64,000 nt of DNA from Thermofilaceae archaeon (GCA_038861545.1 JAWCCZ010000001.1:192001-256000), one strand, 5' to 3'. Shown: positions 4,241 to 64,000, counted from the stretch's first letter. The notes: generated from the letters alone by a model not told the origin. Made by a program: numbers and translations.

Positions 4241-4869
4241 ATGCCACTACTTGAAGTGCGAGAACTAGCTGCCGGATACGGTGATTCCCCTATCATCAGT
4301 CCCCTTAGTTTCACGCTAGATGCCAGGGAAATTCTCCTCATCTATGGTCCTAATAGTATCGGTAAGACAACTCTTTTTAGAACTATAGCTACTTTACTGA
4401 AACCGCTTTCTGGCTCTATATTGATAGAGAGTGAAGCCGCAGGGAAGCATAAAGGAAAGATATTTTCATTCCAGAAACCATAGATTTACCCCTAAAACTC
4501 AAGGTCGTAGATTACTTGCGAATAATCTCCTTGCTCTACGGTGGTGGAAGTGTGGAATCTATTCTCGACGAGTTAGGCTTACAGAAGAGTTTAGCGATAG
4601 AACATCTTTCTCAAGGATTAAGGAGGAGGCTTCAGTTGGCATCTGCGCTTGTTGCTAAGGCAAAGATTTACGTGCTAGATGATCCAACAGTAGGTCTAGA
4701 CGACTATGCCGTAGAGTGTCTAATGCCATCGATTGTAAGCGAGCTCGCCAATAGAGGAGCGGTCTTACTTTCTACAAAGGAGGGGCGGCTTATAGAAGTC
4801 CTAAGCTTGCTAGATAAAGTAAAGGTTATTCATGCACTCAAGTATAGTCGAATGGCAACAAAAATTTAG
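4241..4869 (+). pseudogene. ABC transporter ATP-binding protein, frameshifted
   Basis: Walker A GPNSIGKTT in 4241..4483; signature LSQGLRRR and Walker B YVLDDP in 4516..4869; adding one T to the T4 run at 4463..4466 restores IFFIPETIDLP... and joins the halves. Confidence 0.85.
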
Positions 4870-15677: not shown

Positions 15678-16832
15678 TCAAGTAGGGATTTTTTCCTCGG
15701 GTGGTGGACTCCACTCCTTCGTTAGTACCGCGAGTCTCCTCAATGCCCAGCTTGAGTGAATTCGCCGGGTAAGCTCACTTAGAATCTCGAGTAACTCATC
15801 GTAGGTTTTTCTATCGACCGGAAAGGGGACTCCATCTTTTCCACCAACAGCATAGGCAAATTTGAAGGGATCAACTGGATGTGTAACCGGGTCTCTCCAT
15901 GATGGAGGAGTTTCGTAAACGAGCTCAGCTACTAGAGATAACGCTCTCAAGGTGCTGGGTCCAACTCCCTTTACTCCTAGCAGCTCTTGGTAACTGCTAA
16001 CTCCTAACTCACTTACCTGCGTTAGGGCAGTAGTGTTTATAGAAATTCCTCCTAGCTTAAGGTACTTTTTAACTATTTCACGGCTTTCTTTAGTTGAATA
16101 TGGTGAATAATAGATGAATAGCGGTATATCGCCTTGAGCGATAACCAGTGCCTGCTTTATCATAGGTTCTAGCCTACAGGGTTTTTCTGAGGCTAAATCT
16201 ACAAGCAGCCTCTGATATTTATCCATACCTTTGTCAACGGTATTTAACGCTAAACCAGTAATGCCACTAATACCTGAATGCGGTGTCTCCACGAAACTGT
16301 GTAAAGATTCCGAGAACCAATGATAGCGTCGCGCCATTCCAACTTTCTCATTCATTCCCTGCTGTACTACAGCCCATCTACCCTTAAAGTCTATAAAGAA
16401 CATGTGATGATACAACTGGTAGCCGGCCTGTAGTGCTACGCTGTCAACTTTGGCTACGAGGGTGGATGTTCTTACAAGCTTATCTTCTTCAAGTCCTAAG
16501 TACTTAGCTATCCCCTTAAGTTCAACCGGTGTACGTAAGCTAGCGTCTCCTTTTCCACCGGCCGCATATACACCTAGATCGAGTCTCTTAAGGGTATCTC
16601 TAACAATCGCAGCTGTCACCGTAGTAGACCCTGAACTATCCCAATCCATCCCAATTATGTTGTTTAACGCTTGGAACCACAATGGGTCAGCTACACGCTC
16701 TAAAAACCCTGAAGTACCATACTCCTCCACCACGAGTTTCACTACTATTTCTGAGAGTTCTTTCATACGTACAAGAAGCCAGCTAGGCACATGACCTGTA
16801 TGCAGAGGTAATTCAGCTATTCCTCTCTTCAC
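15678..16832 (-). CDS. DUF763 family protein
   Basis: GIAELPLHTGHVPSWL, GMDWDSSGSTT, VAKVDS, WAVVQQGMN, DPFKFAYAVGGKDGVPFPVD. Confidence 0.9.
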   Translation of the reverse strand: MKRGIAELPLHTGHVPSWLLVRMKELSEIVVKLVVEEYGTSGFLERVADPLWFQALNNIIGMDWDSSGSTTVTAAIVRDTLKRLDLGVYAAGGKGDASLRTPVELKGIAKYLGLEEDKLVRTSTLVAKVDSVALQAGYQLYHHMFFIDFKGRWAVVQQGMNEKVGMARRYHWFSESLHSFVETPHSGISGITGLALNTVDKGMDKYQRLLVDLASEKPCRLEPMIKQALVIAQGDIPLFIYYSPYSTKESREIVKKYLKLGGISINTTALTQVSELGVSSYQELLGVKGVGPSTLRALSLVAELVYETPPSWRDPVTHPVDPFKFAYAVGGKDGVPFPVDRKTYDELLEILSELTRRIHSSWALRRLAVLTKEWSPPPEEKIPT

Positions 16833-16954
16833 TTTGAAGAAAGGACACAGTTAGCGATTAAAAACTAACGTGGACAGTATGTTGAAAGTTAACTACAATT
16901 AAACTGGGGTAAACAATATATGTACTCTAATACCAAGCTAGTCAATCGAGTAAA

Positions 16955-17052
16955 GGGCCCGTGGTCTAGCGGTTAGGACGCCCGCCTCACGAACGAGCAC
17001 GCAGCTAATTTGAGAGCGCGGGAGGTCCCGGGTTCAAATCCCGGCGGGCCCA
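16955..17052 (+). tRNA. tRNA-Val(CAC) with a 25-nt canonical 37/38 intron (16992..17016)
   Basis: Acceptor GGGCCCG/CGGGCCC; anticodon stem CCCGC/GCGGG; perfect BHB helix CTCA/TGAG; CCA not encoded. Confidence 0.93.
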
Positions 17053-18431
17053 TTATTCATTATATAAATAAACTTAGGAGAAGCATAAGCTTTGACTAAA
17101 GTTTCCCTGCCGTTTGCCTCGTCGGTCTGGCTTTCTGAATCTACTAAATCGATCCTAAAGTAAGTAGCCTCTTCGGGTATTTTAATCCTCAGTCTCTTTG
17201 TGAACTGCTCTGACTCTATTTCTTCAGCATGGATGACTTCACTCATTGAAATCAACCTTAAAACAGCTCCACGAGCTCTACGCACCTCAACTAATGTCTC
17301 GATCAATTTCTTATTTACAGATTTTACCTCGTACCAGAGGAAGGGGCCTGCTGGAGACTCTGAAATAGTTACCCTGCCGGCCTTTATGGCATCAAGTATA
17401 TTCTTGCAGCTAAGCTTATCTACATAAACCCAAGTTGTTGGACGCCCGATGTTTAACATAGGGTGTCGTTGCTTTAAAGTGTGAGTATCACTACCTCCTA
17501 CGACCCTAATTCTGTAACCTTTCGAGAGGAGTTCATCAAGCAGCTTAGAGGACATATAATTAAGTAGTGCCCAGTCTCCCTGCCATACTTCAATGAATCC
17601 GATTTTTTCGATACCGCCCAACTGCCATGAAGGTCCAAAAGGCTTAGGATGGTTTACTGAAGCTAGGTACCTTTTTTTCTTCACATAATTAATAAGTCTC
17701 TCGAGTTCTTCGTGGCTCCTAACTCTGAAATCCACCCACTCATTAATATCAAACACATTCATATGTCCATAGTAAGTCGTAACCTCCTCACCGGGCAGTA
17801 GGAGGACTCCTCGGTATATTCCACACTCGGGCACGTGGCTTATTGTATTGTGATCTGTAATAGCGACAAAATTTAACCCTTCCTCCACAGCTGCTTTAGC
17901 TATTTCTTCTAGGGTGGAGTCTCCATCGCTATGCACGGAATGCACGTGAAAATCACCCTTTAGCCAACCGTTCAAAGAAGGCATGGTGAAGTGTTTATGG
18001 CTCTGCATCCTTTTTACTTTTAATTCACAACTCTTTTTCTCTTCCAAGAACATTCTTACCCTTATTGAGTACTTACATCCTACTCGAGGTATTTTGTATA
18101 GACCTAGAACAATTTTCCAAATACCTGGTTTTATGCTACGTGGAATATAGCCAGGGGTAGCGCTAGTTCGAGAAATAATAACTGTTTTCTTATTAGATCC
18201 ACTCCAACCCTTGAAGGTTTTACCAGCTTCTAGGAAACCAATAGGTCCAGGTTCGAAAACCCCTATATCAATTATACATTCATCATTTTCTTCTACTAAT
18301 ATGTAAGAGTATTCGATCTCTATTTTCTCACATCCTTCAGGTACTTTAAACGGTATGTAAACATAATCGTCTTTACTCTTATCCTGCGGTGATAGGAATC
18401 CTTCAAAATACTGTTCATTTGTTGGATACAT
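17034..18431 (-). CDS. PHP-domain metallohydrolase (CehA/McbA-like)
   Basis: GDFHVHSVHSDG, AITDHN, GEEVTTYYGHMN, NHP, GGSDTH. Confidence 0.88.
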   Translation of the reverse strand: MYPTNEQYFEGFLSPQDKSKDDYVYIPFKVPEGCEKIEIEYSYILVEENDECIIDIGVFEPGPIGFLEAGKTFKGWSGSNKKTVIISRTSATPGYIPRSIKPGIWKIVLGLYKIPRVGCKYSIRVRMFLEEKKSCELKVKRMQSHKHFTMPSLNGWLKGDFHVHSVHSDGDSTLEEIAKAAVEEGLNFVAITDHNTISHVPECGIYRGVLLLPGEEVTTYYGHMNVFDINEWVDFRVRSHEELERLINYVKKKRYLASVNHPKPFGPSWQLGGIEKIGFIEVWQGDWALLNYMSSKLLDELLSKGYRIRVVGGSDTHTLKQRHPMLNIGRPTTWVYVDKLSCKNILDAIKAGRVTISESPAGPFLWYEVKSVNKKLIETLVEVRRARGAVLRLISMSEVIHAEEIESEQFTKRLRIKIPEEATYFRIDLVDSESQTDEANGRETLVKAYASPKFIYIMNNGPAGI

Positions 18432-47234: not shown

Positions 47235-48203
47235 ATGATGGAATCCAGAACTACTCAAGTTCGAAACGTCCAGAAGGTCGGTTACTCGACGTTTACGGTT
47301 TCTTTACCAAAGGGGTGGGCACAGCGCCAAGGGGTTAAGAAAGGTTCCAAAGTAGTGGTCCGCGAGCTCCCAGATGGATCTTTAGTGCTGAGCATAGCAG
47401 AAAGAGAACAAGATCTGCCGCGCAGGTTCTCGGCCAACTTAGAGCTTTCTGAAGAGGAGGGGGAAGTCGAGCTTGAGAGGGGAATTATAGCCCTGTACCA
47501 AGCAGGATTCGATACGATAAGGGTTCAAGCACCGTCCAGCTCCCTTGAAGTTCTGAGGAAAGTTAGGAACCGACTAAGTGGTATTGAGGTAGTCGAAGAG
47601 AGAGAGAAGTTTGCTGTTTTAGAAGTTGTTTTAGATTACCTAGAGTTAGGCTTTAACCGGATACTTGGCAGAATGGTCGCGTTACTGCAATCTTCGCTTG
47701 AGAATATTCAGAAGTATTCAACCGAAAATAACGTCCACGCACTTCAAAAGGTGGTTGAGCGAGACGATGAAATCGATAAATTTTACTTCCTGCTTGCTCG
47801 CCAAGCGTCGCTTTGTTTCCGCAGACCAGAGATCCTCAGCAAACTCGGGCTTAGCTCACAAGGAGAAGTGCTCCCCCTTCTCTACTACGGAAAAACGCTT
47901 GAAAGGTTAGGCGACACGTTAACTCAGCTAGCGATGTACGCCTTAGATCGCAGAGCTCCTATACCCGAGAACATAGTTATTTTGCTTCAGAAAGCCCTTG
48001 AAAAAGCCGTACTCTCTTTCGACGCGAAAAGCGCTACCGCTATGAAGGAATTAACTCGAATGCACTACGAGTTTTACGCGTCGCAGAAACCCGGTGATCT
48101 ACTAAGTAACCCTATCCTATACTTGACCGGCAACTTCCTTAGCCTATGCGTAGATGTTATAGAGGCTCGGATCGAATATGATGCGGTCAAGCCTGGCCAA
48201 TAA
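47235..48203 (+). CDS. AbrB/PhoU-domain phosphate uptake regulator
   Basis: RNVQKVGYSTFTVSLPKGWA; ERDDEIDKFY; LERLGD. Confidence 0.88.
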   Translation: MMESRTTQVRNVQKVGYSTFTVSLPKGWAQRQGVKKGSKVVVRELPDGSLVLSIAEREQDLPRRFSANLELSEEEGEVELERGIIALYQAGFDTIRVQAPSSSLEVLRKVRNRLSGIEVVEEREKFAVLEVVLDYLELGFNRILGRMVALLQSSLENIQKYSTENNVHALQKVVERDDEIDKFYFLLARQASLCFRRPEILSKLGLSSQGEVLPLLYYGKTLERLGDTLTQLAMYALDRRAPIPENIVILLQKALEKAVLSFDAKSATAMKELTRMHYEFYASQKPGDLLSNPILYLTGNFLSLCVDVIEARIEYDAVKPGQ

Positions 48204-48250: not shown

Positions 48251-48946
48251 ATGTCGTGGCAGGATGCAGCTAAAAAGGCTCTTTTGAACGCGGGCGCTCG
48301 AGTCGAAGATGGACAGAAAGGTTTACTAATTAGGAGCGAGGAAGAAAGAGGCGCTACTTTCACCCTTCTCGTGAGGAGGCTCCAAATGAGCCTAGATCGC
48401 AAAGTAGAGCTAGTTGGTACCATTGAAGTATCCCCTTATGGTAATGCTGATGTTTTGAGGGAAATGCTAGCGTCATCCTTCGAGGTAACGATGAAGGGAT
48501 TTATTCGGAAGAGCTTCGCTTGGAAGCATTGGGATGGGCTTCATTCTCTCGAAAGAGTTTTCGCTCCGATAGTATTTAACAAAAAATTACTCGACATGGT
48601 TAAATCAGATAACAGTGTAGTGACCATGTTACGTGAAGCTTCTCCGGACCTCCTTGAGGTTTTCCCAGAGATAATGTCTTCAAGCTTTATGGAGGCATAT
48701 CTAGTCACACCGGCTCCGTTTGAGGGTTCCCTCATTAAGGAGCTTATTAGCAAATACCTCAAAGAGCCGGAGAGATTAGCCTGGTGTATTAGATTACAGT
48801 TCTTATATGGATCTCCTAGGATGCCAGTAAAAATACAGAAGAATTACCAACTAGCGCTGCAATTGGGTAAAAGCTTGAAAAAATTTACTGAACAGCTTTG
48901 CTTATATATTTCTTCCTCTCATCAGAGGGGAGCGAACTCCACATGA
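48251..48946 (+). CDS. Hypothetical protein
   Basis: 231-aa ORF; convergent 62-nt overlap with the large permease gene. Confidence 0.65.
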   Translation: MSWQDAAKKALLNAGARVEDGQKGLLIRSEEERGATFTLLVRRLQMSLDRKVELVGTIEVSPYGNADVLREMLASSFEVTMKGFIRKSFAWKHWDGLHSLERVFAPIVFNKKLLDMVKSDNSVVTMLREASPDLLEVFPEIMSSSFMEAYLVTPAPFEGSLIKELISKYLKEPERLAWCIRLQFLYGSPRMPVKIQKNYQLALQLGKSLKKFTEQLCLYISSSHQRGANST

Positions 48947-51900
48947 GAAGCTGCTTCCTCATGTCGTCTATGAACTTGTAGTTGCTGCTGACCCAGAGGG
49001 ACTCAGATCCAGATAATCTTGTCAGGCTGACTAGGAATACATACCTTTTAACGCTTTTATCAAGTAACGATGTTAACTCGACAGATTGTTGAACACCGGC
49101 TTCTACTGGTGAAAGCGCTACTTTTATTGAAAGCTTCTTAGAGGCATAATCTGGTACTTCAAGTTCCCTAACTACGTGTACACCCTCCTTAGCCGCACCG
49201 GCACCGCTATAGTACTCGTAAAGGTAAGCAAGCATCCCTTTAGCCTCCGCCTCACTAGGCACGCTCACTGGAAGCGGTATTTCCCACCTATTCCCTCTGG
49301 GTTTAGTCGGCGGTTTCCACTTTCTTTCGAGGGAAGGCGTAATTATTCTGGCGGCAAGTGTTGATGGATAAAGCACCGCGGCTAGAGACGCCCCTATTAT
49401 GGCTAGCGTACCTACGATCGTAAAAGCAGAGGCGAAGTTGAAGATATGCTCAAGAGGTAAAGCTCCCGCTAAGATCATCAGCTGTGTCATACCATATCCT
49501 AAGAGGTAGCCGAGAACTATTCCTACAGTCACATATACTAACACTTCTGCTATGAAGAATACAGTGATTCCGAGGGGGGAGAGACCTACTGCGCTCAAAA
49601 CGAAAACTTCCCTAGTTCTTTCTTTGAGATTACCCAGCACCATAACGGCAACATTTAACGCACCGATCACTAACACAGCGACAACCATCTCCCATCCGCC
49701 GACGGATAAACTAGTAAATGTAGACGAAACATAAGCTGAACCAGTATGCGAGAAGTACAAGGGTATGTCTATAGCAAACGCCAGCCCACGGACTGTGGTT
49801 AATAGGGAGTCGGAAGTTACAACCCCCTTCCTAGGAATGAGAGCTATAGAAGCCACATAACCGTTGAGTTCCAAAGCTTTGCGATACGGTACTATGATTA
49901 CTCTAGAAACTCCAAGATTTGGTGGAGAAGCACCTGCCTGAAGTGAAACCGAAATGTCCGGTGCTAATTGGGAAAAGTATATCGGGTCGGTTGGGGTTGG
50001 ACTATAACCATCAGCTTCAAGCATCTTATCTATGAATTCTGGCACTTCAACTATACCGGAGACTACGAATTCCTCACCAAGTAAATATATCCTGTCGCCG
50101 ACAGATAAGCTGAGGTTCTGGGCGAGGGATTTGGACACAACTGCATAGTTTCCCTCGTCAAGGAAAATACCTGCCCCCTCAGTGGCGTTTAGATACAACA
50201 ACTTATATTCTTTCGACGTGACTCCGAGAATCGCGTTTACTGTTCCGTTATTACCTTTTTCACTTACCACTGAAAAAACAAGTCCCATGAGCATTCTATC
50301 TACTGATGGGTAAACCCATACCCGCGGCAAAACCTCATAGTTAGGCCCGGCCATTACTTTTGCGACATTCACAAGCTCGGTCGATAGAGTGTTTGGAGGT
50401 ACACCGCGCCCCTGCTTAATTAATATTTGATCGATGGAGGACTTGTATCCGTACCTTGAAACCGGTAGGGTAATCCTGGCAGGCATCAACGATGTAAACG
50501 ATGTAATCGCTATGGTCATCGCAATAATAGTTGCAAGCATAAGAACTGTCCGCATAGGTCTTTTCCTAATGTATTCGCTACCCATTGAGAACGCAGTTAC
50601 AGCGGTATCCACCCTACTAACCTCTGAGCGGTGAACACCAAGAATCTTTCTTTCGATTCTACTTCTTAAAGCTTCTCCCTCAGATCCTAGCATTACAACA
50701 GTGATCAGTAATATAATTGTTATCAGTGAACCCACAAGCCCTAAAGGTATGTTACTAAGAATAGCGAACGCTGGGTGAATCATTAGGAAAAACCACAGGA
50801 TAACAGCTGCTAATACAGTCATCGTCGCGATTCTTTTTACCCCCTCCCTATGCAATGAGATTTTTTCAAGGAAGAATGCCGCAAAGGCAATTAAGGGGAA
50901 CATGTAAAGCATTGACCGCGCTGCATCATTAACCAAGGGCATTACCTCGCTGCTATAGGCTTTGCTTGCATATGCTCTAGCTACTAATGCATGAGCATAC
51001 GCCTCATGATATAACGTTGCCGAAAACGCCTCTTTAGCTCTATCTAAATGCTCACGCGCTTTACTAAGCGTTAAGTCGGCACTAGGGCTACCCACATGTC
51101 TGTCTACGAAATGCTTGTATCTACCACTTGAAATATAATACATGTCGTTAGCTGCTCTATATGCTGTGAAAATTACCCGGATGTTTTTCCCAGGTGATCC
51201 AATAAACCCGTACCCCTCAGTGTTTTCTGAACTGGAGTTTGTGAGTAGCAAAAATGGTTGAAGAGCTGCTGCCGTTCCTGTCATGCTGGTGTATCCCACA
51301 ACAATGAAGTATGTTTCAGGCTGAGCCCAAACTAAGGCTACATTTTCCCAACCATTGCAGAAATATCCATAGCTGAGAGGTAAGCTTTTGCTAAGTAACT
51401 CATAAGGCTGGAATATTACGGAAGTTTGCCTCCACCAGCCAAAGTAGCTTGTCCTAGGATCGGGCATACTAGGGGTTAGGAGTGTTGATGGTAAATTAAC
51501 GTCGAATAACTCTATTATGACAGCAGGGGCTACAACTACAGTTAGATTTTCATACTCATGTAAAACATTTATTATTTGGGCGAAGTTTTGCATACCAAAT
51601 TGACCTAAATCCGTAGCCATGATAATTGCTCCCTGCTCGTTAAAAACCCACCCCCTTGCAATCCATCTCGAAAAAGGTACAGCTGTGCCTCCGCCGGCGA
51701 CCCTCCCTGCATGTGGTATGCCGTAAATAACAAAACGACCCTCCGCATCAGTTCTGGTTATAATTTTGTTTAACTTATAAGTCGACGTTACTAGCTGTGT
51801 TTCTACAATAGCGTTTGGAACCGGGCTATACCAGCCAGCGCTAAAGTTATATCTTACTACTCTACCATAGAATGTAGTAAACCCAGGATAACCCCTATCG

Positions 51901-53393
51901 GCAGCGAGATCGTAGCGTGTAGGTTTAATTGAGTTTTTGCTAATTTGCCATTCAGTGTTTAATAATTCTAGGACTATATATGTAGTTACTTCAAGGTAGG
52001 GTTTTAAAGCGGATACATTAGCGTACTGCCAGTCATCCACAGGCATGCCGACGTATAGCCTACTCGAATGCCTGCTGGTTATTGAGAAGGAAGGTACCCC
52101 ACTTATAGATGCGGCCTCCGAATCTAGCATATAGGGAATCGGTTCGGTTCCCCAGAATCCCTGGTAAGAGAAGAACGTGCTCACTAGAGCTGATGGACTC
52201 GGAACACCCAGGACCGAGTTCGTATAAGTTCTTAAAGGTTCTTCGGCCAAAATGGTCTGAATCTTATTGGATACCCAGGTAAGCCTAGCGGGGAAGCCTC
52301 CACTGTGTATCGAGTTACCACCATAAGTTGTGAAGTAGCTGGACTGTAACAGTTGAATACCGTCTGAATCGCTGGAAAACATGTCAAACCCTATAAAGCC
52401 CCATATAGTCGTTCTTCCGCTAAGGATTTCTTCATTGAAGAAGTAATCTTCAATGAAAGCCCTAACCCCTGCTAATGCCTGCCAATGACCCGAGAGGAAA
52501 ACCAGCCAGACGGTGTATCGAGGTTTATTTTCTTTCAAATATCTGGCCAGTTCAAGCAAATAAGCAGGGGCTATAGCTTCGGCCTTACTATTCGATAAAG
52601 CTGGAACCACTGACCATGAGTCAAAGTGAGCCGCTAAGATAAGTATATCAGAAGCAGAGCTCCCGTTAATGACAGCGATCAAGTTAGCCGCCTCTATCTC
52701 CTTCCAGGTTATCTTGGATACTAGCCTAATTTTAGAAGCATTCTCTACAAGCTTCCAGTCGTCTTTATTTATGTAAACTCGCGGGAAGTTGATAGGAGTA
52801 TCAAGAAACTTCTTATTGCATTCATAATACGTGGTCGAAATTGGCTCTATGAATATAACCGCCTTTGCACCTAATTTAGCAGCGTTAAGCCAGTTATCTT
52901 GTGAGTTAAATTCCATTGCAACTATACTGCCTTCAATGTTTTTCCCGTTAAAATCGCTTAGTTCTCCCTTACCGACGTAATGTAGTGGGCCTTCTAACCC
53001 TTCTGGTGGTGTTGTAGAAGGATTAACGCCATTCGGGTATAGAGCGTGAACCTTGACCCGAAGGTACGGCGGCTCTAAAACTTCTATATATGCTTCTTCT
53101 TCGAAGGGTACAAGAACTTTATAGGTGTGGGTGGTGACTTTTAAGCCGAGTTCATCTTGAAGGTAGGAATAAATAAATTCTAAGGTTTTCTGGTAGCCCG
53201 GATACCCAGTCATTCTAGAGCCAAAGTTTGAGATAATCTCTACTTTTTCTTCTATCTGAGCGTAATCCAGCTGGGTTAGTGAGACTTCTGGTTTACCAAA
53301 ACTGACAGCTAAATATGCCAAAGTAATTAGGGTTAGTGCTAATACGGCTATAGAATTGCAAAGGAACTTCTTTTTAGGTGTTTGTACTTTCAT
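48885..53393 (-). CDS. Large fusion: PA domain + atypical M28-like domain + helical linker + MacB/FtsX-type permease
   Basis: GSRMTGYPG; PA segment WLNAAKLGAKAVIF; AAHFDS; FLSGHW; YIRKRPMRTVL; LKERTREVFVLSAVGLSP; many TMs. Confidence 0.85.
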   Translation of the reverse strand: MKVQTPKKKFLCNSIAVLALTLITLAYLAVSFGKPEVSLTQLDYAQIEEKVEIISNFGSRMTGYPGYQKTLEFIYSYLQDELGLKVTTHTYKVLVPFEEEAYIEVLEPPYLRVKVHALYPNGVNPSTTPPEGLEGPLHYVGKGELSDFNGKNIEGSIVAMEFNSQDNWLNAAKLGAKAVIFIEPISTTYYECNKKFLDTPINFPRVYINKDDWKLVENASKIRLVSKITWKEIEAANLIAVINGSSASDILILAAHFDSWSVVPALSNSKAEAIAPAYLLELARYLKENKPRYTVWLVFLSGHWQALAGVRAFIEDYFFNEEILSGRTTIWGFIGFDMFSSDSDGIQLLQSSYFTTYGGNSIHSGGFPARLTWVSNKIQTILAEEPLRTYTNSVLGVPSPSALVSTFFSYQGFWGTEPIPYMLDSEAASISGVPSFSITSRHSSRLYVGMPVDDWQYANVSALKPYLEVTTYIVLELLNTEWQISKNSIKPTRYDLAADRGYPGFTTFYGRVVRYNFSAGWYSPVPNAIVETQLVTSTYKLNKIITRTDAEGRFVIYGIPHAGRVAGGGTAVPFSRWIARGWVFNEQGAIIMATDLGQFGMQNFAQIINVLHEYENLTVVVAPAVIIELFDVNLPSTLLTPSMPDPRTSYFGWWRQTSVIFQPYELLSKSLPLSYGYFCNGWENVALVWAQPETYFIVVGYTSMTGTAAALQPFLLLTNSSSENTEGYGFIGSPGKNIRVIFTAYRAANDMYYISSGRYKHFVDRHVGSPSADLTLSKAREHLDRAKEAFSATLYHEAYAHALVARAYASKAYSSEVMPLVNDAARSMLYMFPLIAFAAFFLEKISLHREGVKRIATMTVLAAVILWFFLMIHPAFAILSNIPLGLVGSLITIILLITVVMLGSEGEALRSRIERKILGVHRSEVSRVDTAVTAFSMGSEYIRKRPMRTVLMLATIIAMTIAITSFTSLMPARITLPVSRYGYKSSIDQILIKQGRGVPPNTLSTELVNVAKVMAGPNYEVLPRVWVYPSVDRMLMGLVFSVVSEKGNNGTVNAILGVTSKEYKLLYLNATEGAGIFLDEGNYAVVSKSLAQNLSLSVGDRIYLLGEEFVVSGIVEVPEFIDKMLEADGYSPTPTDPIYFSQLAPDISVSLQAGASPPNLGVSRVIIVPYRKALELNGYVASIALIPRKGVVTSDSLLTTVRGLAFAIDIPLYFSHTGSAYVSSTFTSLSVGGWEMVVAVLVIGALNVAVMVLGNLKERTREVFVLSAVGLSPLGITVFFIAEVLVYVTVGIVLGYLLGYGMTQLMILAGALPLEHIFNFASAFTIVGTLAIIGASLAAVLYPSTLAARIITPSLERKWKPPTKPRGNRWEIPLPVSVPSEAEAKGMLAYLYEYYSGAGAAKEGVHVVRELEVPDYASKKLSIKVALSPVEAGVQQSVELTSLLDKSVKRYVFLVSLTRLSGSESLWVSSNYKFIDDMRKQLLMWSSLPSDERKKYISKAVQ

Positions 53394-53414
53394 AATTGAA
53401 GGTAAACTACGATT

Positions 53415-53459
53415 CCCTATAAAGGTTTATACTGATTTTCGGCAAATACTTTTATAGGG
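53415..53459. promoter_or_regulatory. Divergent mirror-image TATA promoters (CCCTATAAA ... TTTATAGGG)
   Basis: 9-bp perfect inverted repeat (11/12 when extended); each TTTATA lies about 23-30 nt upstream of the respective ATG (53393 and 53479). Confidence 0.7.
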
Positions 53460-53478
53460 CTTCTGACTCAGTCCTCCA

Positions 53479-55395
53479 ATGTCTGGGAGTGACGACATCG
53501 AATTCAAACCAGGATACACGTGGAGAAGCTTGTTAGCAATGATTTTAGCCGGACTTATTTTTATGCCGGCTTCAGTCTACCTTTGGTTAGCAGTCGGAGC
53601 CGGAGCCAGCACTGCTGCCACGTACGTTACGGTGATACTTTTTAGCGCATTAGCTAGAATATACGGCACTCAGTTAACTAGGCAGGAGTTGTTCATAATT
53701 TACTCTATAGTGGGAGGCATTGGAGGAGCGATGCCGATGTTTTACTGGTTAGTTTTTAGAAGCTACTTTATAAATAACCCACTTAGCTTAGAATTCACCA
53801 TAGAGGGTAAGCCAGTAAGGGACTTTGTACCTTACTGGATGGCGCCCCCTGTAACCTCTTTTGCTCATGCGGCAAGGACATTCTTCACAGTAGACTGGTT
53901 ACCAGCTGTTACCACAACTATTGTTTTCGCCACCCTTAGCCTAGTAGCAGAGTTTTCACTGGGCATGTTGTTTTCGTACCTTTACATCGAGATTGAACCA
54001 CTACCTTTCCCCTTTGCTCAAATCGATGCTACAATGGTAAACACTTTGTATGAACGAGAACACGAGCGCATGTTCTATTTTTTCACTTCGTTAATTGGAG
54101 GGGCCGTATATGGTTCCTTAGTGTACTTGATCCCCCTGATTCTTGGACCGCAGGCTGCCGTAATACCGTATCCCTTCATTGACTTTACTCCGTACACACA
54201 GTTCTTCCTTCCTGGCGCAGCGCTAGGTGTAGCTACAGATCCAACCGCTTTCCTTTATGGAATGGTGCTTTCCCCTACAGTTACCTTTTCAATAATGCTG
54301 GGCTCCCTGGCTACATGGGTTTTCGGGAACACATTAACTCTTATAATCTTCAGGAATTTTTCGCCGGAATGGGTGAAAGAGTACGCTCCCGGTATGGGAC
54401 TTTTCCTAATTTACCAGAGAGCTAGCTTAAGGCTTTGGCTCTCAACTTTTATGGGGTTAAGCTTTGGATTAGCTATTTTCGTATTTATTATAACATGGAG
54501 CAGGCTGTCCAGTGCGCTTAAATCGTTATCAAAGATTAAAGAGGCGAAAGGGGGACCGGGTTATCCTCCAGCTAAGTTTCTGTTGTCAGCTTTCTTAGCC
54601 TCGACTCTTACAAGTGTAATCCTCTACTATTACCTTGTTCCAGGCATACCGCTTTGGCTACCCTTGTTCGTTTCAGTGTTTCTGAGCTTTGTAATCGCTT
54701 TCCTTGGTGCTAGAGTTTACGGCGAACTCGGTTTAACGTTTTCATCAGATTTTGTGTATAATATGTGGAAAACCGCAGTCTACTTCAGCCCATACCAAGG
54801 GTATGCTGGATGGATCTCCACGCCGGTGATTGCCGGCTTTTCAACACCTTGGTATGTTAACGCCACAAAGGTAGCCTACTTGACTAGGACAAAACCCATA
54901 GATTACTACAAGGCTGTTTTGACGTCGTTCGTTATAACAACCTTGTTAGGCCTATTTTTTATGGACTTTTTCTGGAGAATGGCGCCCATCCCCTCTTTCG
55001 TTTACCCATACGTAATGGGTCTCTGGCCGGCTTACGCTATCAGCGACTGTCTATTCGCTACTAGACAGATAGCCGTGAGGTTAGATCAAATACTAGTAGG
55101 AACCGGCATTGCATTAATGGGGGGTTTTGGCGGTTTCATGCTAGCTAAAATCGGTGCACCACTGAACCCGATTGCATTAATAAGTGGATGCTTCTCATTG
55201 CCGCCTTACACTATAATGGTGTTCATAATGTCAATGTTGAGCAGGTATGTGGTGGCAAAAGCCATTGGCAGAGAGAGGTGGGAGGGCATAAAAGCAGTAT
55301 TCATAGCCGGTTTTCTCGCGGGCATGGGCATAGTTGTCGCATCAGGGGTTGCTTTAACATTGTTGTCTAAAGCATCTTGGGTTTGGCCATGGTAG
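53479..55395 (+). CDS. OPT-superfamily-like multi-pass membrane protein
   Basis: PGYTWRSL start, LTRQELF, YIEIEPLPFPFA (OPT-type L-x-F-P motif), many TMs. Confidence 0.75.
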   Translation: MSGSDDIEFKPGYTWRSLLAMILAGLIFMPASVYLWLAVGAGASTAATYVTVILFSALARIYGTQLTRQELFIIYSIVGGIGGAMPMFYWLVFRSYFINNPLSLEFTIEGKPVRDFVPYWMAPPVTSFAHAARTFFTVDWLPAVTTTIVFATLSLVAEFSLGMLFSYLYIEIEPLPFPFAQIDATMVNTLYEREHERMFYFFTSLIGGAVYGSLVYLIPLILGPQAAVIPYPFIDFTPYTQFFLPGAALGVATDPTAFLYGMVLSPTVTFSIMLGSLATWVFGNTLTLIIFRNFSPEWVKEYAPGMGLFLIYQRASLRLWLSTFMGLSFGLAIFVFIITWSRLSSALKSLSKIKEAKGGPGYPPAKFLLSAFLASTLTSVILYYYLVPGIPLWLPLFVSVFLSFVIAFLGARVYGELGLTFSSDFVYNMWKTAVYFSPYQGYAGWISTPVIAGFSTPWYVNATKVAYLTRTKPIDYYKAVLTSFVITTLLGLFFMDFFWRMAPIPSFVYPYVMGLWPAYAISDCLFATRQIAVRLDQILVGTGIALMGGFGGFMLAKIGAPLNPIALISGCFSLPPYTIMVFIMSMLSRYVVAKAIGRERWEGIKAVFIAGFLAGMGIVVASGVALTLLSKASWVWPW

Positions 55396-55454
55396 GCAAT
55401 TGTCTTAAAATTTTTACAACAAAGCTTAAGTAGGAGCTTTTTCATACTATTTCA

Positions 55455-57563
55455 ATGACAACCGAATACAGAAAAGAGGTTGTCGAGTACCTACCAGGTT
55501 TAACGAAGCGCTCGCTTGTAATCGGCATCCCGTTGCTGCTGGTTTACGCCTATCTCTCCGTCATCGTAGGTTTATACACAGATAAAAGTGGGACATTCGG
55601 AACATTCGTTATACCGATGATATACTTGGTCTTCATCTTTGAACTCCTTGGTCGAGCAAGCCCGAAGCTCAGGTTAACGCCACAGGAGTGGGTGTTCGTT
55701 TTCTCCCTTTTCACGTTCATGGGTATGCACAGTTACTTAACCATGCACGCAGCGGCGCATGTTAACCCACCCCAGTACATCTGGAGCTGTATCCCATGGG
55801 GAGATTACCTAGGTTTCACAACCGGAGGTTTAGAGAATTACTGGAGCGCTGCCGTACCGGCAGTATCTGTACCACCTGAACCATTACGTTTTGAAGTAGC
55901 TCGAATGATCCGCAGCGGTAGGAGCATTGGCCAGGAGATTCCATGGGGCGCGGTTTTGCAGCCTCTATTCTACTGAGGAATAGTATACATATTTTACTGC
56001 CTAATTAGTGCTTGGGTTGCCTTTACGTTCGGTAAACCTTGGGTTGAGGAAGAGCGCCTAGTATTTCCGCTAGCTATCCCGTCGCTTTACTTGTTTAGGG
56101 AAGCTACTGAAGTATCAGACGGAAGAAAATCAAGGTTATTCGACTTCAGAGTACCGCACACCAAGGTCTTCTGGGCGATGTTTGTTGTCGGAATCATTAG
56201 CGGTATAAACCCGATACTAGCCGAGCTGCTGCCAGCTTTTCCGATCGGAGCTTGGTGGGGGGAGACAAATCTACAGCTGACATTTTTAGGTAATATGTGG
56301 CCGGGAGTCTACGCAGCCGCGATATTCTTCATCCCGCAAGTAGCAGTAGGGCTCGTGATGCCCAACGACGCTCTGATAACTTTAATTCTATGCTGGATTA
56401 TCTTTGGAGTCCTCTACCAAGGTATCGCTGTGATGACAGGTCAAGTGCAGTACAACCCCGGTATGGAATACGTATGGCCTTGGGAGGATTACCCTGGAGT
56501 TTGGATGCCGTTTCCATACAGGTTTATTGCATCTAACGGAGTTGGCTTAGCTATTACGATATGGATGCTCTTCAGATATCGGAGAAGATTCGCAGAGGCT
56601 TTTTCAACGCTGTGGAAGCGGGACATATCGGAGCGTGGTCTCTCCTTAAGACTCGCAACGATTCTAATGCTTATAGGCTTCTTCGGCTGGTATGCCATAA
56701 TGCTCATGGATCAAGCTAGCCCAATCGTAGCTTTACTAGTACCGTTCTGGGCGCTGCTATGGAACATTTGCTTTGCCAGGGTTTTCGCTGAAGTATTCTG
56801 GCACGTTGGTACAGGTTGGGGCCATACGTGGATCCCGACTTACGAGTTCGGCAGGCTTATACACGGATGGCGGGCATGGGATCAAGTTACCTGGGACAAC
56901 CCGATGACTGATTCAGCATGGTTCACCCCTGCAAGGCATATAGCAAACTTAAGTAACTGGAACATCTCCTTCAGCCCGTTAAGCGCCGGCCATCAAGTCA
57001 CTCTGTACAAACTCGCATATGATCTGAAAATGAGACTTTCCGACCTATTAGTAGCAATCATCATCGGCGCTCTAGTCTTCTCGTTTGTAGCCATGCCGAT
57101 TGAAGCATACTTTATCCTGCACACAAAAGGCGGCTTAGATGTTACGAACGCTGCGGGTGCGAACTGGTGGCCGTGGATGGCAGCCGGCTGGTACCACAGA
57201 GGGTACTGGATGGCCACGGGTATGACGCCAGATACTGTTGGATGGCTGTTCTACGGTGTGGGCTTAGCGCTTGGCTTAATTTTCTACATACTTAAGGCGA
57301 GGTTTACTTGGTTCTGGTTCATTAGCGTGCCAGCTTTGTACATTGGCATGACGATTGTGACCTACATGTGGTTAACTTCTCTGCTCGCTTTGATTATAAA
57401 GTTTGTGGCAATAAGAACTGTAGGCATTAAACGATACGAGGAGTACGCTACACCCGCTGTAGCTGGTTGGATTCTTGGTTTCGGTGCCGCATGGTTGCCT
57501 GCAGCGCTCGTTAACTTCTTCGTAGTTGTCCTACCAAGGTTAAGCGCGCTCTGGGTACCTTAA
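55455..57563 (+). pseudogene. Second OPT-like membrane protein (DUF6785/DUF6784-like, about 702 aa) interrupted by one in-frame TGA at 55974..55976
   Basis: ORFs 55455..55976 and 56091..57563 share a frame; the 38 intervening codons are open and encode GKPWVEEERLVFPLAIP; N-terminus PGLTKRSL and LTPQEW mirror the upstream paralog. Confidence 0.8.
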
Positions 57564-57593: not shown

Positions 57594-58232
57594 TTACTTT
57601 GGTTTCGATTTTTCATTACTTTTAAGTTTAAGTATCGTTAAAATTGCTTGACAGTAAGCCCTTAATCTCTTATAACCGATTACAGGCGGTAAAAGCCCCT
57701 TTCTCCTCAGATCCCCCATCATTAATTCAAGTTTTTTAGGTTCAATTTGGAGAAGTTTTGCCGCATCTTCAAGATTTTCACTAGCGGCTATCGCCCCAAA
57801 TATCTTTAAAGCATTTGGATCTTCAAATACGGATAGCGTGGATATCAGCTCAATAATTGCCTCTTCTACGGCTGCTTTAACTATGTAGAATAATTCTTCC
57901 TCATCAACTGCGTAAAGATCAGAAAGGAGTATCACGCCCACGTTGAGCTTGTTAGCTAATGCTTCAGCTGACTTATCAGAAAACCCGCGGGCAATGATTA
58001 AAGGTGTCACTCCTAGGAGCTCTGCATTAATTTTAGCTTGTCGAACGTCTGATACGCTTACTTTACCGGCTTTTATCTCTACGGCATGTAAGCCAGCCGT
58101 GCCCTCAGCCAGCAGGTCGACTTCACCTACCTGCGATTCTTCAATTATTATTGGAACACTTTCTTGTAGTACCCTATACCCCATTCCCTCGAGTACTCTT
58201 TTTGCGATCTCTACACTGGCTTTACCCCTCAT
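57594..58232 (-). CDS. PD-(D/E)XK (RecB/Mrr-like) nuclease with a C-terminal HTH
   Basis: GEVDLLA...AVEIK...VRQA. Confidence 0.8.
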   Translation of the reverse strand: MRGKASVEIAKRVLEGMGYRVLQESVPIIIEESQVGEVDLLAEGTAGLHAVEIKAGKVSVSDVRQAKINAELLGVTPLIIARGFSDKSAEALANKLNVGVILLSDLYAVDEEELFYIVKAAVEEAIIELISTLSVFEDPNALKIFGAIAASENLEDAAKLLQIEPKKLELMMGDLRRKGLLPPVIGYKRLRAYCQAILTILKLKSNEKSKPK

Positions 58233-62111: not shown

Positions 62112-64000
62112 ATGGCTAAGGTAATTATCGAACCAGCTGGTGATCTGCAAATAGAGGGAATGAACATTAAATATGGTCCCGGAAGCCTATTTAAAGCAAA
62201 AGTATGGGTGGTTAACGATGCTTCGAATATTTCAGGTGTTCTCTTTAAGTTGGGAGTTTGTGGATTTAAATGTAAGTCAAGTACTGGATAAAGGGTATTC
62301 CCAAATAATTATCCCTCGTAGCGAAGAGCCGGCTACGCTAGCTGCCTCTATTTGTTTTTCGATACCTGTGTACACAGATGGCATGCATGAAGTTGAGCTT
62401 AGGGTTACCTTATTGATGGGGGATGTAAAAGTTGATGACGAGGTTTTCAGCTTTTTTAAAGTTGCACCGGCAAGCGAAGTTATCGTAAAGCTAGTCAATA
62501 TTACCGAGCCGCTAAAATTTTACGTAGAGTACTGAAGGGTATTCTTTCTATCTACAATCTAGGGATGGAAGAAGTGTCTTCTATCTCCCCACGGGCTCGA
62601 GGGCAGTGGTCTATGGTCCAGTGCTTAACGTATCTTCTCCCTATTTACCAATAGTATACGACTTGGGCGTCCTACAAACCGGTGTAATAGAACTAGAGTT
62701 AACACTCATTGAGGGCTCACTATTCATTGTTAGAACGCCAATGCCTTCGCTAGATGGTTCACTACCAATGATCAACTTAAAAATTAAACCTTTTTCGGAA
62801 TTACCTGGACCGTACATTTTATCATACGATTCCTCAAGTATTGCTATCGCTTTAGCGCTTGGCTTAACAGGTTATCAGTTTATACTGCCGGCGAGGATTC
62901 CCCTCAACGTGTCTTACGATGTAAAGTGGGGTTTAAACCAAGTATCTTTTACAGTAGGCCCCTTAAACTTAAGCAAAGGCGAAGTGTATATTGATGATAG
63001 GCTGGCAAAACTGTTAGCCAGCGAAGCGTTAGAGTTTGGCAGCAAGGATATTTCAAATGCCTTAGCCAAGTTGACGTGGCTCGAGAAACGGGGTTTTTAC
63101 GCAGGTTTAACTAGGGAGATAGTTAAAAAAGCATCTGAAGCAATTGACGAAGCCCGTAAGACAATAGAAGACTCGCCCGAAGTATCCTCAACGCTCGCGA
63201 GGGAAGCTAGAAACTTACTGGTAGCTGCCACCGAAAATATAGGTAAAATTTATGCAGGGCTAAGGTTAACATCCTTCTCTTCTTTTTATTATTATTATAC
63301 TAGCTTCGCTTGGTTTTGCCTCAATCCTTGTTGAAGAGGAGCCTAAAAGACCGGTTATTGGAGTAGCAGTGCTCGTAATTCTGGTAGTGATGGTTTACGT
63401 GACGTACCCAGGTATCACAGAGGTCGATACAGTCGAGCTTTTCTTAGGTATGTATACGAGCTTTTTAGTATTTATTCTCCTGATTGTGACACCCTATCTC
63501 CTTGAAGGGGTAAAAAGCGAAAAAGGTTTGCTTGTGTTTACCGCCGTGGCTATGGCGCTATCGGTAGCGGCTAGGAATCTGAGAAGAAGGGGTTTACGTA
63601 CCGCTCTAGCCCTGTTTTCAGTTATTGCTCTTTCTCTGGCTGTTTCCAGTTTATCTTCTATGAGCTACTACGCTACTACAAAAGAATTGGTGACAACGGT
63701 TAAGGCTCAAGGGAGCGCGGATAACTTCCTGATGGTTTTCAGTAAACACAGTCTGACTTTCGATGACATCATATACGTGTTTTCGCAGCCAGAAACGCTA
63801 GAGGCTGGCTTCATACTGAGTAGCGTGCCGCGCCTTGAACCCTACGGCTATCATGCTACTAGGACCATCAGAGCCTTTATCGCCGTACACGGGTATTCAC
63901 CGATAAGGTCAGAGCTGTCAAAGATCGTCCAGCCGTTAGCTGCCATTGAGGAGCTTTCACAGCGTAGCGATACGGTACTCGTGAGCAGTGCTTGGAGGGA
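62112..64000 (+). pseudogene. MacB/FtsX-type permease paralog with at least three frameshifts; runs off the window end
   Basis: Fragments join via shifts near 62243, 62528 and 63280; the last frame encodes TMs then ARNLRRRGLRTAL, matching YIRKRPMRTVL in the 1502-aa protein. Confidence 0.75.

Follow-up and report, generated by a model that had tools for sequence, protein, structure and literature searches.

How a protein with a MacB/FtsX-type permease could operate at a locus with no ATP-binding cassette (ABC) ATPase beside it is the question raised by three adjoining genes of an uncultured, heat-loving Thermofilaceae archaeon. The window, i.e. the whole 64,000-nucleotide stretch of DNA that was analysed (G000:C1:192001-256000), comes from a genome of 1.63 Mb that is 92% complete, and the closest protein relatives of the window genes are labelled Thermofilaceae archaeon. 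On the minus strand lies an open reading frame (ORF) for a 1502-aa protein, hereafter called the giant (48885..53393; P0001). Head-to-head with it, 85 bp away on the plus strand, are two tandem genes for polytopic proteins, opt1 (53479..55395, an ORF of 638 aa; P0002) and opt2 (55455..57563, one frame of 702 codons with a single in-frame TGA). These reading frames agree with a preliminary description of the locus made from the sequence alone, which did not mention the stop codon in opt2. In our reading, the module is a type VII ABC machine that includes OPT-fold subunits. The ATP motor "missing" from the locus is probably encoded at other places in the genome and used in common by the copies of the module, and we hold with modest confidence that a conserved membrane module served by such an unlinked, shared type VII motor hands a captured oligomer to the OPT-fold pair.

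The three-gene module and its distribution

The genome encodes six full-length giants. A paralog of opt1 is adjacent to the giant in all six cases and a paralog of opt2, which belongs to the family DUF6785, in four of the six, with variable gene orders. For comparison, 20 loci comprising 21 further modules were extracted as 20-kb stretches from eight genomes belonging to other families of the same order. opt1 adjoins the giant in 21/21 of these modules, and opt2 lies inside the 20-kb stretch in 20/21. A Latescibacteria genome and two other metagenome contigs also have the order DUF6785 - giant - OPT. The co-localisation of these genes across archaea and bacteria, which the preliminary description had proposed as a check on its reading, was thereby borne out. 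Pairwise distances among the giants were strongly correlated with those among the opt1 proteins (Mantel r 0.895, 30 modules) and the opt2 proteins (Mantel r 0.92, 24 modules), and none of 2000 permutations reached r in either comparison; therefore, the genes duplicate and diverge as units. Because of the conserved adjacency in 6 + 21 copies, the occurrence in bacteria and this co-diversification, the three genes are supported as one conserved functional unit.

A signature domain at the C-terminus of the giant, described below, was detected in 67 genomes of a 401-genome sample of the phylum, representing 28 of 161 Thermoproteota genera, with one to nine copies in each genome. The module copies within a genome are diverged, being about 25-40% identical along their whole length. 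In genus g6 of the same family, the signature domain was unmatched in six of six sampled genomes, five of which are assembled in one or two contigs, and a search with the full-length giant yielded only weak or fragmentary matches in 5/8 g6 genomes. The module is altogether absent from cultured members of this family. The source annotations of module proteins read hypothetical, "M28 family peptidase" or "FtsX-like permease", and nothing relevant was found in the literature on DUF6785, on CARF with LolE, on FtsX with OPT or on orphan archaeal FtsX mechanotransmission. The module is undescribed in the literature and widely conserved.

Some triads have further membrane proteins in their vicinity. 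An extra FtsX-type protein of 960-990 aa lies beside the triads of L027, L029, L038, L044 and L046. Module M3 of our genome is followed by a 798-aa protein with eight transmembrane segments (TMs) and no Pfam match (L021:15198-17594), and a 1090-aa protein with FtsX and a periplasmic core domain (PCD) is encoded 5 kb upstream of it.

Architecture of the giant protein and its OPT-fold partners

From its N-terminal anchor, the giant runs through a PA domain, a dead M28 segment, a beta-rich middle and a stalk helix, and then through three TMs, an elbow helix, TM1, a MacB-type PCD, TM2-4 and a cytosolic C-terminal domain. All six paralogs in the genome have this architecture. The PA, M28-fold and MacB/FtsX domains named in the preliminary description were each recovered by Pfam, the PA domain below its curated cut-off, and the MacB/FtsX part also by AlphaFold2 (AF2) modelling and Foldseek/VIA matches.

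The PA domain (52758..52991, minus strand; residues 135-212; Pfam E 0.011) is the best-conserved part of the ectodomain among the six paralogs, at 42%. Among solved structures, the PA-containing aminopeptidase 2ek8 comes nearest to the head; phmmer aligned it to residues 90-316 of the giant (E 1.5e-7). The M28-fold core that follows (52350..52685, minus strand; residues 237-348) matches Pfam Peptidase_M28 with 34.6 bits (cut-off 21.3) over positions 1-104 of the 193-position profile only, i.e. its first half. In the alignment to 2ek8, the metal-bridging DD of the enzyme is replaced by SK and the catalytic EE by HW. Both DD and EE are lost in 6/6 paralogs, H-x-D is kept only in M1 and M4, and a G-H-[WYA]-Q motif is conserved across the paralogs at the former catalytic EE site. 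The two-zinc ligand set and catalytic Glu of M28 enzymes were hence absent from the giant in this comparison with 2ek8 and the six paralogs. With both positions gone from every paralog, the head is a catalytically dead pseudo-peptidase, in keeping with the earlier proposal. Receptor-like pseudo-peptidases of the PA + M28 type include the transferrin receptor, nicastrin and nicalin. The giant shares with these and with 2ek8 the succession of a PA domain, an M28 fold and a helical region, and with the receptor-like members the loss of catalytic residues. It differs from them in its fusion to a MacB-type base and in the G-H-[WYA]-Q that takes the place of the catalytic EE.

Residues 800-1502 were modelled with AF2 from a 25-row alignment; the model attained a predicted local distance difference test (pLDDT) score of 84.9 and displayed a stalk helix of ~45 residues, three extra TMs, the elbow helix, the TM1-PCD-TM2-4 unit and a cytosolic alpha+beta domain. 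The PCD (49989..50540, minus strand; residues 952-1135) was matched by Pfam MacB_PCD with 30.6 bits (cut-off 27) and could be superimposed on the MacB periplasmic region 3ftj over 183 residues (VIA Z 13.3, rmsd 3.5). TM2-TM4 (49347..49685, minus strand; residues 1237-1349) were matched by Pfam FtsX with 39.7 bits (cut-off 25.5). Two traits of type VII permeases, a four-TM FtsX domain and a periplasmic core between TM1 and TM2, are both present. Type VII complexes contain two FtsX units, as a homo- or heterodimer; the giant carries one, and a separate mini-FtsX is encoded next to a candidate ATPase (see below). Foldseek and VIA group the base with MacB (5gko, E 2.9e-10), LolCDE, HrtBA, YtrEF and FtsEX. 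In MacB and LolCDE, the nucleotide-binding domains (NBDs) dock at the cytoplasmic loop between TM2 and TM3. In the giant this loop reads L-K-E-R-T-R-E ... G-L-S-P, with E and R nearly invariant in 25 homologs.

The base thus has the TM1-core-TM2-4 arrangement, the elbow helix and the TM2-TM3 loop of the type VII ABC systems (MacB, LolCDE, FtsEX, HrtBA, YtrEF, YbbAP and BceAB), and like these the giant co-occurs with an ATPase family of the LolD/MacB type. Unlike them, it adds three TMs, an N-terminal ectodomain of ~800 aa with a dead PA/M28 head and a C-terminal domain after TM4. Its ATPase is not encoded in cis in most genomes, and OPT-fold permeases, which are absent from every characterised type VII system, are invariably encoded alongside it.

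The cytosolic C-terminal domain (48888..49289, minus strand; residues 1369-1502) has the order b-a-b-b-b-b-a-a in the AF2 model, and its best VIA matches, to SRPBCC/Bet v1-like and KA1 folds, are marginal (Z 8.6). A search with this domain retrieved 985 cluster representatives at E<=1e-3, in which it nearly always ends proteins of about 1450-1600 aa. Residues 775-1392 fit the PADLOC profile CARF_m8--CARF_LolE_TM (E 1.2e-58). The match covers the stalk, TM and PCD/FtsX part only and stops at profile position 592 of 810; a CARF reading of the C-terminal domain was rejected on this ground. The giant accordingly resembles the CARF_m8 proteins (CARF_LolE_TM and CARF_Beta-galactosidase_LolE_TM) in its stalk and membrane base, and differs from them in the marginally KA1/SRPBCC-like domain that follows. 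A conserved cytosolic domain unique to the family, together with the existence of related shorter FtsX proteins that have CARF-like sensor domains according to the PADLOC model names, would suit a flux sensor resembling BceAB, in which ligand binding by the head is relayed through the FtsX base to the C-terminal domain and the OPT-fold proteins are co-sensors. The CARF part of the profile is, however, the part left unmatched, and the module has no kinase, regulator or other output gene as a regular neighbour; we regard a sensor as highly improbable.

Evidence on the two polytopic proteins comes from both profiles and structure. opt1 itself has no Pfam match at E<=0.1, the OPT profile (PF03169) included. 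Three of 30 opt1 homologs pass Pfam OPT (best E 5.3e-12), as does the opt1 paralog G000:C1:473776-474567 (39.1 bits, cut-off 25.8), and because some homologs and one paralog pass, the wider opt1 family is an OPT relative. The AF2 model of opt1 (pLDDT 87) was matched by Foldseek to barley YS1 (7wst_A, E 1.3e-12, TM-score 0.63-0.67) and secondly to 7wsr_A (E 7.6e-12), the next match having E 2e-3; opt1 hence has the OPT/Yellow-Stripe fold. opt2 is a DUF6785 protein (PF20581) with 56.2 bits when read through the TGA (cut-off 25), its two halves matching profile positions 1-148 and 156-403. Nearly full-length alignment of the opt1 and opt2 families by hhalign (probability 99.7, E 6.5e-26, 578 columns) showed them to be paralogous, as had been noticed in the preliminary description. 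The label "OPT-like" given there holds for the fold of opt1 and for its relatives that pass the OPT profile, and fails for opt1's own sequence in Pfam. Compared with the OPT/Yellow-Stripe-like family (PF03169; TC 2.A.67; barley YS1, 7wst), opt1 has the same fold and some relatives within Pfam OPT; the differences are opt1's lack of a Pfam match, the assignment of opt2 to DUF6785 and the tie of this paralogous pair to a giant FtsX protein, whereas the known OPT proteins are secondary transporters that move peptides or metal chelates on their own.

The in-frame TGA of opt2 (55974..55976, plus strand) stands in the context TAC TGA GGA, and the frame is unchanged on both sides. The opt2 orthologs of G001, from the same genus, and G017, from another genus, are intact at 702 aa and read TAC TGG GG. 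at that codon, a conserved Trp codon in the orthologs. Recoding of the TGA, as selenocysteine or as Trp, was considered and rejected because the orthologs encode TGG there, and the codon most plausibly reflects a recent nonsense mutation or a base-call/consensus error. Among proteins of 1118-3190 aa, no fused giant-OPT protein or longer OPT form was scored, which is weak evidence. A relative of opt1 in Latescibacteria has 1115 aa and includes PDZ domains (L017/L018:10001-13348).

A candidate motor encoded in trans

No intact ABC ATPase gene adjoins the three genes, as had been stated at the outset. The only PF00005 match in the window is a frameshifted ABC ATPase gene at 4241-4760, about 44 kb from the giant; the break puts its Walker A (G-P-N-S-I-G-K-T) in a different frame from the signature region and Walker B.

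Elsewhere, the giant and an ATPase are physically linked. In G086 and G234, each with a single contig and one giant, ~3.5 kb separate the genes miniFtsX-ABCa-ABCb from the triad; the triad of G124 has an ABC gene ~2 kb away; and in L016, the genes opt2-giant-opt1-FtsX-ABC-ABC-GH3 follow one another on one strand, their ends overlapping or nearly touching, an arrangement consistent with one operon. Between the triad and the miniFtsX-ABC-ABC genes, G086 and G234 encode conserved proteins of 841 aa and 608 aa with two predicted TMs each (L073:4396-6921 and 15796-17622; L075 likewise).

The candidate motor genes of our genome are found at two places. A mini-FtsX of 238 aa and an ATPase, ABCa, are encoded at G000:C3:19994-21492. 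An orphan ATPase, ABCb, 71% identical to the mini-FtsX-linked ABCa, is encoded at G000:C5:60848-61594 (L047:5849-6592) between an ABCE1/RLI gene and a THUMP-domain gene, and no membrane gene is adjacent to it. ABCb scores best with LolD, MacB, DarD, DevA and FtsE, and all of its catalytic motifs are intact. At 16 of 18 loci of ABCb orthologs, the arrangement RLI <-> ATPase -> THUMP was found with no neighbouring membrane gene. In two genomes of one family (L065:1251-1985, L066:5263-5982), a ~240-aa gene product with four TMs, unrecognised by the FtsX-containing profile, is encoded directly upstream of ABCb. In triad-less genomes, RLI and THUMP are directly adjacent with no ATPase between them, the insertion of ABCb being confined to giant-bearing genomes. 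A search of 40 related genomes identified close ABCb orthologs (76-93% identity) in 22, all of them giant-bearing, and in none of the giant-less genomes; in G022, G031 and G039 a giant is present and an ABCb ortholog was undetected in this search. In a phylogenetic tree, the ABCb of G086 clusters with the orphans (support 0.95), and the ABCa of G086 with the mini-FtsX-linked ATPase. This grouping and the linkage in G086, G234, G124 and L016 suggest that an ancestral three-gene motor was split and unlinked in the order of our archaeon.

At the scale of the phylum, using a threshold of E<=1e-85 in the 401-genome sample, the ATPase family was found in 64/67 giant-bearing genomes vs 21/334 others. 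The preliminary description had proposed a system without an ATPase, to be abandoned if a dedicated ATPase consistently accompanied the permease. Absence of the ATPase is true of the neighbourhood of our three genes; at the level of the genome, the distribution of a type VII ATPase family follows that of the giants, and in L016, G086/G234 and G124 it is encoded beside the triad, so that the ATPase-less reading finds no support beyond the neighbourhood, and the ground named for abandoning it applies in part.

Prediction of a complex of giant residues 920-1502 with ABCb gave weak support, with a score of 0.36 as against 0.00 for the best of three controls; the mark for this score was reached by 58/80 solved complexes and 2/110 mismatched pairs, scores of 0.60 or under came from only 7/80 solved complexes plus both mismatches that passed, and since LolCDE/MacB-like complexes have been solved, the predictor may have passed the mark by having memorised them. 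The runs agree in >=69% of contacts, and the partner pLDDT is >=76.

An arrangement in which one unlinked ATPase gene serves several paralogous modules would have a parallel in the multitask ATPases MsmX of Bacillus subtilis and MsiK of Streptomyces, which serve several sugar importers. Those ATPases drive type I importers, whereas the ATPases here are of type VII and their sharing is what we infer.

The same data bear on the view that the giant needs no ATPase, being a passive receptor or scaffold with a motorless FtsX base beside an OPT pair that works as a proton-coupled secondary importer. OPT proteins are secondary transporters, nearly all loci including the bacterial ones have no ATPase in cis, and the conserved cytosolic domain after TM4 might replace the contact with an NBD. 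Against this stand the genome-wide co-occurrence of type VII ATPases and their physical linkage in several lineages, the conserved motif of the TM2-TM3 cytoplasmic loop and the nature of the C-terminal domain, which resembles a small KA1/SRPBCC-like fold and no energy module. We consider motorless operation unlikely.

Direction, substrate and significance

In the reading that we prefer, the mini-FtsX, ABCa and the orphan ABCb would form a type VII motor encoded apart from the modules and serving all six of them. Powered by ATP, the periplasmic core and head of the giant would move and so pass a captured extracellular oligomer to the OPT-fold pair, which would carry it across the membrane.

A number of observations weigh against this reading. 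In our genome, none of the six modules has a PF00005 match closer than 14 kb, only 2/21 further modules have an ABC gene within the 20-kb stretch, and at two bacterial/metagenome loci no ABC ATPase lies within 10 kb of the module. The ATPase family occurs without a giant in 21 genomes and the giant without the ATPase family in three. The sampled genomes are related and not independent, which makes the co-occurrence counts overstate the association, and the co-occurrence may merely reflect the shared gene content of related lineages. The mini-FtsX, ABCa and ABCb could also be a separate, self-sufficient transporter. To our knowledge, none of the characterised type VII ABC systems acts in import, and we know of no OPT protein that works with an ABC motor. 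With respect to the substrate, the flanks of the six modules of our genome hold housekeeping genes and display no common theme or substrate clue; the neighbours are IMPDH-like, amidohydrolase, PhoU/AbrB regulator, HDAC-like, RuBisCO-like, MttB-like, adenylate kinase, DNA ligase and similar genes. The catabolic genes among the 103 ORFs flanking the 21 triads (GH130 three times, and DUF6259, GHL10 and GHL6 twice each) were counted without a background control.

Uptake direction and substrate are guesses, an imported oligomer being the likeliest. The gene context in other genomes leans mildly to glycans over peptides. Besides the families just listed, and in the same uncontrolled count, the 103 flanking ORFs include TrmB twice, GalT twice and SIS three times; GH3 is part of the gene row of L016; and some bacterial contexts contain GH3, BNR/sialidase-like, sulfatase and sugar oxidoreductase genes. 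Because a genome may hold up to nine copies at the level of divergence given above, the modules would handle many different extracellular ligands.

Import has to be weighed against an envelope machine for export or extraction like LolCDE, MacB or FtsEX, with the OPT-fold proteins as conduits or scaffolds and a lipid-anchored or surface molecule being extracted or presented. The base has the MacB/Lol/FtsEX fold, all characterised type VII systems act outwards or activate extracytoplasmic partners, and a dead M28 head is receptor-like in other proteins, among them nicastrin and the transferrin receptor. One to nine copies so far diverged, however, fit many substrates better than a housekeeping task, cultured relatives of the same family do without the module, and catabolic glycan genes lie near some copies. 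We judge export or extraction to be quite improbable. Our preferred reading of a shared motor that hands an oligomer to the OPT-fold pair admits a stronger form, which we advance only tentatively as possible but doubtful: a new class of nutrient importer in which one shared type VII engine, the mini-FtsX with a heterodimeric ATPase, would drive interchangeable receptor modules, each a giant dead-peptidase/FtsX protein matched to its own OPT-fold permease pair. Mechanotransmission outside the cell would then feed oligomers, either glycans or peptides, into a channel with a secondary-transporter fold.

The 85-bp intergenic region between the giant and opt1 (53394..53478, no strand assigned) contains two back-to-back TATA boxes of the form C[CT]TTTATAGGG, and the ATG of each gene has its own TATA box ~26 nt upstream. 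Both boxes are kept in the same-genus ortholog. A role of the element C[CT]TTTATAGG as a regulatory box shared among modules was rejected, as it is a generic TATA box: a genome search found 11 occurrences, and none upstream of the other five modules or of the ATPase genes. Convergent with the giant gene, and overlapping its 3' end by 62 nt, is an ORF for 231 aa at 48251-48946 on the plus strand, which has no Pfam or NCBIfam match and recurs at this site, with 41-78% identity, in three other genomes. The positions of the PhoU/AbrB-like gene at 47235-48203 and of a gene for 212 aa at 57594-58232 are likewise conserved in three other genomes. A further FtsX-type gene, a 747-aa open frame, starts near the end of the window (62112-64000 and beyond), and its FtsX match lies just past the edge, at G000:C1:256386-256706.

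For experiments, G086 and G234 offer a clean entry point, as each has a single contig and one triad with the motor adjoining. If our reading is true, the module represents a large undescribed family of about 1000 clusters at 50% identity, present in both archaea and bacteria, in which MacB-type mechanotransducers and OPT-fold secondary carriers, thought to be separate, are joined, and it would be a tangible example of many membrane modules driven by a single ATP motor. Should the importer form hold as well, it would stand as the first type VII system that acts inwards and would include the first ABC-coupled OPT-fold protein. For the uncultured heterotrophic archaea that carry it, the module would constitute a major route of substrate handling.

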